From assembly GCF_013315695.1 (NCBI RefSeq), contig NZ_CP054353.1: a stretch of 64,000 nt of DNA. The stretch is one strand, 5' to 3'. The notes beneath the pieces were generated by a model that saw only the letters and a list, made by a program, of their open reading frames with translations, ran no database searches and was not told the origin of the DNA. Each line of letters starts with the position of its first letter. Position 1 is the stretch's first letter. A program made the translations under genes and the position numbers. The DNA is from Escherichia coli. Its GTDB lineage: Bacteria; Pseudomonadota; Gammaproteobacteria; Enterobacterales; Enterobacteriaceae. Shown here one piece after another: positions 60,528 to 61,722 of this stretch.

Positions 60528-61722
60528 GGAAGGTGCGAATAAGCGGGGAAATTCTTCTCGGCTGACTCAGTCATTTCATTTCTTCATGTTTGAGCCGATT
60601 TTTTCTCCCGTAAATGCCTTGAATCAGCCTATTTAGACCGTTTCTTCGCCATTTAAGGCGTTATCCCCAGTTTTTAGTGAGATCTCTCCCACTGACGTAT
60701 CATTTGGTCCACCCGAAACAGGTTGGCCAGGGTGAATAACATCGCCAGTTGGTTATCGTTTTTCAGCAGCCCCTTGTATCTGGCTTTCACGAAGCCGAAC
60801 TGCCGCTTGATGATGCGAAACGGGTGCTCTACCTTGGCACGGATGCTGGCTTTCATGTATTCGATGTTGATGGCCGTTTTGTTCTTGCGCGGATGCTGCT
60901 TCAAGGTTTTTACCTTGCCGGGACGCTCGGCGATCAGCCAGTCCACATCCACCTCGGCCAGCTCCTCGCGCTGTGGCGCTCCTTGGTAGCCGGCATCGGC
61001 TGAGACAAATTGCTCCTCTCCATGAAGCAGATTACCCAGCTGATTGAGGTCATGCTCGTTGGCCGCGGTGGTGACTAGGCTGTGGGTCAGGCCACTCTTG
61101 GCATCGACACCAATGTGGGCCTTCATGCCAAAGTGCCACTGATTGCCTTTCTTGGTCTGATGCATCTCCGGATCGCGTTGCTGCTCTTTGTTCTTGGTAG
61201 AGCTGGGTGCCTCAATGATGGTGGCATCCACCAAAGTGCCTTGGGTCATCATGACGCCTGCTTCGGCCAGCCAGCGATTGATGGTCTTGAACAATTGACG
61301 GGCCAGTTGATGCTGCTCGAGCAGGTGGCGGAAATTCATGATGGTGGTGCGATCCGGCAGGGCGCTATCCAGGGATAATCGGGCAAACAGGCGCATGGAG
61401 GCGATTTCGTACAGGGCATCTTCCATGGCACCGTCGCTCAGGTTGTACCAATGCTGCATGCAGTGAATACGCAGCATGGTCTCCAGCGGATAGGGCCGTC
61501 GGCCATTGCCCGCCTTGGGATAAAACGGCTCGATGACAGCGGTCATATTCTGCCATGGCAGAATCTGCTCCATGCGGGAGAGGAAAATCTCTTTTCGGGT
61601 CTGACGGCGCTTAGTGCTGAATTCACTATCGGCGAAGGTGAGTTGATGGCTCATGATGTCCCTCTGGGATGCGCTCCGGATGAATATGATGATCTCATAT
61701 CAGGAACTTGTTCGCACCTTCC
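60528..61722 (-). mobile_element. IS5 (1195 bp) with 4 bp target-site duplication TTAG, between the EIIB and EIIC genes
   Basis: Termini GGAAGGTGCGAATAAG ... CTTGTTCGCACCTTCC; TTAG at 60524-60527 and 61723-61726. Confidence 0.93.
60674..61654 (-). CDS. insH: IS5 transposase
   Basis: 326 aa [38 protein letters not shown], matching IS5 InsH. Confidence 0.93.

Follow-up and report, generated by a model that had tools for sequence, protein, structure and literature searches.

An ISKpn26-type IS5 element between the IIB and IIC genes of a bgc-type PTS operon in Escherichia coli: a recent strain-private insertion and its possible read-through

Background

Insertion sequences that land inside operons are often, and classically, polar. 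The closest analogues of the insertion described here are the IS5 copies at nmpC and fucAO. In nmpC, a co-oriented IS5 nested in the gene is transcribed by the host promoter, which yields an nmpC-ins5A fusion mRNA; the native ins5A promoter is almost silent, and the nmpC-driven copy dominates transposition (PMC11677980). At fucAO, IS5 lies upstream of the operon and is co-oriented with it. Transcripts that begin at the 5' end of IS5 traverse the element completely and drive fucAO. No extra promoter activity was seen with a reporter behind the full-length IS5, the activity of the whole IS5-activated operon came to approximately 85% of that of the fusion promoter by itself, and expression was lost when an rrnB terminator was introduced after the fusion promoter (PMC11894529). 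[quoted passage not shown] The end of IS5 that faces the downstream genes at glpFK and flhDC carries the "IB" region, 177 bp of bent DNA with an IHF site (PMC2753651). The target consensus of IS5 is quoted as C(A/T)A(G/A) (PMC11894529). ISKpn26 is best known for the disruption of mgrB in Klebsiella.

The bgc operon of E. coli was described by Neelakanta, Sankar & Schnetz 2009, AEM 75:2284, and is reported to depend on BgcR and CRP. [quoted passage not shown] It is counted among the cryptic beta-glucoside operons (PMC4488073).

Here we describe an insertion sequence that splits the first from the second gene of such an operon in one E. coli strain (assembly GCF_013315695.1, contig NZ_CP054353.1). 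The window is the whole stretch of 64,000 nucleotides that was analysed, and all coordinates refer to it.

Results

The interrupted operon has the following parts.

61757..62068, minus strand: PTS EIIB gene (bgcE-like), 103 aa, upstream of the insertion, with its stop codon 30 nt from the target CTAA (ORF, relatives, NCBIfam)
59122..60444, minus strand: PTS EIIC gene (bgcF-like), 440 aa, intact (ORF, relatives, NCBIfam)
58783..59100, minus strand: PTS EIIA gene (bgcI-like), intact (ORF, NCBIfam; the RefSeq relatives start two codons later, giving 103 aa)
57054..58727, minus strand: LamB-like carbohydrate porin gene (bgcH-like), 557 aa, intact (ORF, relatives, NCBIfam)
55590..57035, minus strand: 6-phospho-beta-glucosidase gene (bgcA-like), intact (NF007154, 1030.6 bits)
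62267..62965, plus strand: GntR-family regulator gene (bgcR-like), 232 aa, intact, divergent (ORF, relatives, NCBIfam)
62069..62266, no strand assigned: divergent regulatory region separating the GntR regulator gene from the IIB gene, a putative promoter region (CRP-like site)

The block is flanked by marB and eamA. Genes for IIB, IIC, IIA, a porin and a phospho-beta-glucosidase together with a divergent GntR-type regulator gene make up the complete bgc gene set, as established from NCBIfam profiles, the RefSeq annotation of the relatives and PMC3585215. On the strength of this gene content the operon is taken to match the cryptic bgc beta-glucoside/cellobiose operon, from which it differs in the insertion sequence that parts the first gene from the second. 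The region between the regulator gene and the IIB gene contains a CRP-like site, TGTGATCAATGTACCA, which agrees at 8 of 10 half-site positions. An Rfam search returned no RNA family at E <= 1 in the IIB-IIC spacer or in the promoter region.

We also considered a trap for the small RNA ChiX in the IIB-IIC spacer, on the model of the paralogous chbB-chbC spacer, which served as the strongly complementary control. The candidate was rejected: the predicted duplex with the bgc spacer (-17.9 kcal/mol) equals the mean of shuffled sequences (-17.9 +/- 3.7) and was equalled in strength by 230 of 500 shuffles, against -36.1 kcal/mol for the chbBC positive control.

The inserted element and its borders were read directly from the sequence and resolve into the following features.

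60528..61722, minus strand (strand of the transposase gene): IS5-family insertion sequence of ISKpn26 type (ends, length, identical annotated copies)
61707..61722, no strand assigned: terminal inverted repeat at the ins5A-proximal (5') end, containing the proposed -35 hexamer GTGCGA (promoter elements according to PMC11894529)
60528..60543, no strand assigned: terminal inverted repeat at the ins5A-distal (3') end (direct reading)
[quoted passage not shown]
61655..61722, minus strand: 68-nt 5' end region of the IS with the weak transposase promoter PIS, retaining -35 GTGCGA, a 17-bp spacer and -10 GATCAT (alignment to K-12 IS5; PMC11894529)
60528..60710, minus strand: last 183 nt at the 3' end of the IS, the same as in K-12 IS5, including the 177-bp IB region and facing the IIC gene (alignment; PMC2753651)
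60524..60527, no strand assigned: left copy of the target-site duplication, TTAG on the plus strand and CTAA on the operon strand (direct reading; a single copy in the empty site of the relatives)
61723..61726, no strand assigned: right copy of the target-site duplication, TTAG (direct reading)
60445..60527, minus strand: spacer remnant upstream of the IIC start, 83 nt, containing a hairpin (60464-60503) and the ribosome-binding region of IIC

The element is 1,195 bp long and lies between the IIB and IIC genes. Its termini, GGAAGGTGCGAATAAG and CTTGTTCGCACCTTCC, are inverted repeats of 16 bp, 15 of which agree, in keeping with the IS5 group, whose members measure about 1.2 kb and end in 16-bp terminal inverted repeats of the form GGAAGGTGCGAA(T/C)AAG. 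It contains only one long ORF, of 326 aa on the minus strand, which scored 366.8 bits against the NCBIfam profile for IS5-family transposases (NF033581, cut-off 140 bits) and covered profile positions 1-285 of 285, as expected of a complete IS5-family DDE transposase. Copies of the whole 1,195 bp with 100% identity occur in many E. coli chromosomes and plasmids and carry the RefSeq label "IS5-like element ISKpn26 family".

With K-12 IS5 (IS5A/insH1) the element shares its length of 1,195 bp, the terminal repeats, a 4-bp duplication of the CTAA type and a single 326-aa DDE transposase. Nevertheless its identity with canonical K-12 IS5 had to be rejected, as nucleotide identity to IS5A is 94.6%, with 65 differing positions (63 substitutions and 2 single-base indels) concentrated in the 5' UTR of ins5A. 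The coding sequence has 42 synonymous and 6 nonsynonymous codon differences, so that 320 of 326 residues (98.2%) are identical to K-12 InsH1. The diverged 5' UTR carries a Shine-Dalgarno sequence, GAGGG, that we judged good. By every defining feature tested in its sequence, the element belongs to the IS5 family and is of the ISKpn26 type. It illustrates how often an ISKpn26 variant lies behind an "IS5" assignment that is based on sequence alone.

The 4-bp duplication is perfect, and CTAA on the operon strand fits the C(A/T)A(G/A) consensus. Since, in addition, the spacer has a GC content of only 26.5%, against 42.7% for the island and 49.7% for the rest of the window, the insertion site is a typical IS5 target. 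When the element and one TTAG were deleted in silico, the resulting 800 bp were 100% identical to E. coli MS 21-1, which identifies a true simple insertion. The earlier note on this DNA had described a clean IS5 insertion with a TTAG duplication. The simple insertion and the perfect duplication stand, while "IS5" has to be narrowed to the ISKpn26 variant. The same note gave the IIB-IIC spacer as 117 bp, a figure that counts the duplicated TTAG twice; uninterrupted, as in MS 21-1, the spacer measures 113 bp. It was right that EIIB is parted from EIIC, EIIA, the porin and the glucosidase. The flanking genes are as it described, and all five lie on the minus strand.

The ins5A gene is on the minus strand too, and is therefore co-directional with the operon. 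Along the operon strand the IIB stop codon is followed by 30 nt, the CTAA target, 68 nt of the IS 5' end and the ATG of ins5A; the ins5A gene takes up 981 nt including its stop codon, and then come 146 nt of the IS 3' end, the second CTAA with 79 nt of spacer, and the ATG of IIC. The untranslated distance from the ins5A stop to the IIC start is thus 229 nt. The hairpin at 60464-60503 and the ribosome-binding region of IIC are both downstream of the insertion and are unaffected by it.

The empty-site sequence, representing the bgc-type island, was found in 2,510 of 5,426 complete E. coli genomes, and in 2,501 of these island carriers a single place accounts for 80% or more of the 800-bp query. 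In none of the 5,426 genomes was either IS junction matched over at least 80% of the query, each junction query consisting of 150 bp of flank and 150 bp of IS. An exact 34-nt string across the left junction was likewise not found in the metagenome contig collection. The nearest relatives, MSB1_4I and MS 21-1, are approximately 100% identical to positions 36000-60527 of the window (24.5 kb); they are without the insertion and have the operon intact. Once the IS and one TTAG are removed, positions 54501-64000 (8,301 bp) differ from MSB1_4I at one place only, position 56112, a synonymous change (GGA versus GGT) in codon Gly308 of the glucosidase gene. All genes of the operon are intact, and the operon and its promoter region are without secondary decay or compensatory change. 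Because the junctions are absent elsewhere and a single synonymous base distinguishes 8,301 bp from the relative, these sequence comparisons indicate that the insertion is very recent and private to one strain. It is an ordinary IS polymorphism in kind, though absent from every genome searched.

Scans of the element region for terminators and promoters bear on what happens to transcripts here. Terminator-like sites were no commoner than in shuffled sequence. The operon strand has just one, a weak hairpin within the translated ins5A ORF, where the K-12 IS5 sequence is near-identical, differing by one base. No hairpin with a U-run behind it was found in the 229 nt that separate ins5A from IIC. 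A consensus scan of the 83 nt in front of IIC detected no sigma-70-like promoter on the operon strand; a weak promoter could escape such a scan. At the position required by the fucAO precedent, 14 bp upstream of the ins5A -35 hexamer, there is no CRP-like sequence, and the only weak CRP-like match (7 of 10 positions) lies about 113 nt upstream of the IS end.

Discussion

We favour, at a probability of about 0.5, a co-regulated but attenuated read-through, in which the operon promoter would now also drive the transposase. An ISKpn26-type IS5 element transposed recently into the AT-rich 113-bp spacer, duplicating its CTAA target, and this is the step that the sequence itself shows. Transcripts starting at the operon promoter would run from the IIB gene into ins5A, leave the IS at its 3' end and enter the IIC, IIA, porin and glucosidase genes, continuing past the element because it has no evident terminator in this orientation. 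The translation-initiation region of IIC would be intact in the read-through transcript. The expected outcome is a longer mRNA with native regulation kept, probable attenuation and a shifted ratio of IIB to IIC. Neither outright silencing nor activation is expected, and the transposase of this copy would incidentally come under the operon promoter. What leads us to favour attenuated, co-regulated read-through is the co-orientation of ins5A with the operon, taken together with the published K-12 IS5 cases at nmpC and fucAO. Over the 183 nt at its 3' end, which the proposed transcripts would cross, the IS is identical to K-12 IS5, the element from which the read-through evidence comes and from which the copy here differs at 65 positions, clustered in the 5' UTR.

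The insertion resembles the nmpC copy of K-12 in that a co-oriented IS with the target CTAA is nested inside a host transcription unit, and by this analogy the upstream host promoter would be expected to transcribe ins5A as a fusion mRNA. At nmpC, however, the IS lies inside the coding sequence of a defective prophage gene, whereas here it occupies an intergenic spacer of a multi-gene operon, and the downstream genes are intact and could still be expressed. With fucAO it shares the co-orientation of ins5A with the downstream operon and the identical 3' end of the IS that is traversed. The difference is that no suitably placed CRP site is present here, and that incoming transcription would be that of the operon promoter, arriving via IIB.

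These two analogues, and the co-directional orientation of ins5A, had been left out of account by the earlier note, which offered a choice between a polar and an activating effect and held that in either case expression of the operon is no longer coupled. Loss of coupling is not established, given the co-orientation, the lack of an evident terminator, the identity with K-12 IS5 over the last 183 nt of the element and the read-through with little loss at fucAO (PMC11894529). Moreover, the activation precedents it cited, bgl, glpFK and flhDC, all have the element upstream of a promoter and none inside an operon (PMC2753651), and the consensus scan found no promoter-like site in the 83 nt before IIC. 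Whichever effect the insertion has on the downstream genes, EIIB would remain under its native promoter. Given that bgc is reported to be cryptic or weakly expressed, this insertion, which is one among several in a region rich in IS elements, is probably almost neutral.

A more speculative extension of the read-through model, which we put forward with considerable reserve, concerns the element itself. An ISKpn26/IS5 copy wired to a promoter under CRP and BgcR control might transpose conditionally on carbon source and temperature and act as the "master copy" of the strain, while read-through keeps the downstream PTS genes on. If true, this would be a natural intra-operon example of a promoter-driven transposase and read-through together.

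Among the alternatives, strong polarity survives best, and we consider it plausible, if less probable than read-through. Transcription would then end within or just after the IS, through Rho-dependent termination in untranslated stretches such as the 229 nt behind ins5A or through mRNA instability, the genes from IIC to the glucosidase would be silenced, and the bgc pathway would be unusable, making the insertion a loss-of-function step in an IS-rich, decaying region. The approximately 1.2 kb of foreign sequence that part IIB from IIC, and the 229 untranslated nt before the IIC start, speak for such an outcome, and the disruption of other genes in the 64-kb window (an usher by IS2, an autotransporter by IS4) is consistent with ongoing gene decay. 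On the other hand, the operon strand has no evident intrinsic terminator, and the good Shine-Dalgarno sequence suggests that ins5A would be translated, which would protect the transcript against Rho. The IS 3' end is also the same as in K-12 IS5, with which the whole activated fucAO operon attained approximately 85% of the activity of the fusion promoter (PMC11894529). The downstream genes are intact and without secondary mutations, which also argues against polarity, though decay would not be expected so soon after the insertion.

Activation of the downstream genes, of the type known from glpFK, flhDC and bgl, is considerably less probable. Here the IB end, or a disruption of H-NS silencing, would turn on a promoter lying latent within the 83 nt in front of IIC and give expression of IIC, IIA, the porin and the glucosidase independently of the native regulator. 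The orientation is that of the known cases, in that the IB end lies next to the downstream genes, as at glpFK and flhDC, and the ins5A promoter at the far end (PMC2753651), the IB region is 100% conserved, the locus is AT-rich (26.5% GC in the spacer, 42.7% in the island, 49.7% in the rest of the window), and the operon is one of those described as cryptic (PMC4488073). [quoted passage not shown] Furthermore, IIB, which PTS transport needs, would stay unactivated, and the presence of the insertion in one genome only gives no sign of recurrent selection.

A fusion promoter of the fucAO type, in which flanking host DNA activates the silent ins5A promoter and so drives ins5A and the downstream PTS genes, is less probable still. 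The co-orientation of ins5A and the retained promoter elements (-35 GTGCGA, 17-bp spacer, -10 GATCAT) would suit it, but activation of this kind depends on a CRP site placed 14 bp ahead of the -35 hexamer (PMC11894529), nothing CRP-like lies there, and we rejected it on the absence of this site from the flank. A copy misplaced by the assembler can practically be dismissed: multi-copy IS elements are often mis-joined and this junction occurs in no other genome searched, but a chimeric join would not give a perfect 4-bp duplication at an IS5-consensus target, and the flanks are colinear and rejoin to the sequence of the relatives without a base gained or lost.

Taken alone, a strain-private IS polymorphism of an ordinary kind in an accessory, reportedly cryptic sugar operon matters little. 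It does provide a clean natural test case, with near-isogenic relatives free of the IS (MSB1_4I and MS 21-1) and every gene of the operon intact, which could show how polar a co-oriented IS5-type element is inside an operon and whether the operon promoter makes the embedded transposase nutrient-regulated.

The window holds five further IS copies, two of IS1, two of IS4 and one of IS2. Two of the five split genes, the IS2 copy that of a fimbrial usher and an IS4 copy that of an autotransporter of the ECSE_1600 family. In addition, part of the 64-kb window is inverted relative to the nearest relative.

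Candidate regulatory elements near the IS5-type insertion

Around the ISKpn26-type element of the IS5 family, which lies in the bgc-type beta-glucoside PTS operon, the sole base differing from the nearest relative, MSB1_4I, in 8.3 kb was position 56112, and this change is synonymous (GGA/GGT, Gly308 of the 6-phospho-beta-glucosidase gene). The following elements were found in the intergenic DNA of the operon:

62139-62154, operon strand: CRP-like site TGTGATCAATGTACCA, bgcR-bgcE intergenic region
60464-60503, minus strand: 40-nt hairpin (GGATAT...ATATCC), IIB-IIC spacer

A simple sigma-70 scan detected no operon promoter in the intergenic region between the divergent regulator gene bgcR and the IIB gene bgcE. 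The CRP-like site there has 8 of 10 half-site positions matched and would fit an operon promoter that depends on CRP, since it lies ~70-85 nt before the start codon of IIB. The spacer hairpin directly precedes the IIC ribosome-binding site, lacks a U-tail and has no Rfam match; it could act as an mRNA processing or stabilising element.

Other insertion sequences and rearrangement

Further insertion sequences and the genes that they interrupt were identified in the window:

13839-14606: IS1 copy 1, 768 bp, direct orientation to copy 2
32459-33226: IS1 copy 2, 768 bp, direct orientation to copy 1
19995-21430: IS4 copy 1, ~1.44 kb, direct orientation to copy 2
29108-30545: IS4 copy 2, ~1.44 kb, direct orientation to copy 1
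~24200-25530: IS2 element, TnpB ORF 24564-25469 (plus)
23350-24177 and 25394-26125, minus: FimD-like usher fragments (profile matches)
27151-29046 and 30543-32195, minus: ECSE_1600-family autotransporter fragments (profile matches)

Window positions 11000-30546 match the minus strand of MSB1_4I (NZ_LR898874.1, 2,670,135-2,684,601) and positions 36000-60527 its plus strand (2,593,000-2,617,527). These opposite-strand matches imply a putative IS-associated inversion or rearrangement between genomes that are otherwise ~100% identical.

The IS1 copies are 99.87% identical and spaced 18.6 kb apart, and their 167-aa InsB-like ORF matches the IS1 transposase model. Nested within this pair, the IS4 copies (99.8% identity, spacing 9.1 kb) flank a cluster of fimbrial genes together with a portion of an autotransporter gene, in a layout that resembles a composite transposon. 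The fimbrial usher gene is broken in two by IS2, its fragments covering profile positions ~401-610 and ~615-877, and the fimbrial operon is probably inactivated. The autotransporter gene is interrupted by IS4 copy 2; its fragments cover positions 1-534 and 555-1177 of a 1806-position profile, so that the C-terminal portion, too, has apparently been lost or moved elsewhere.
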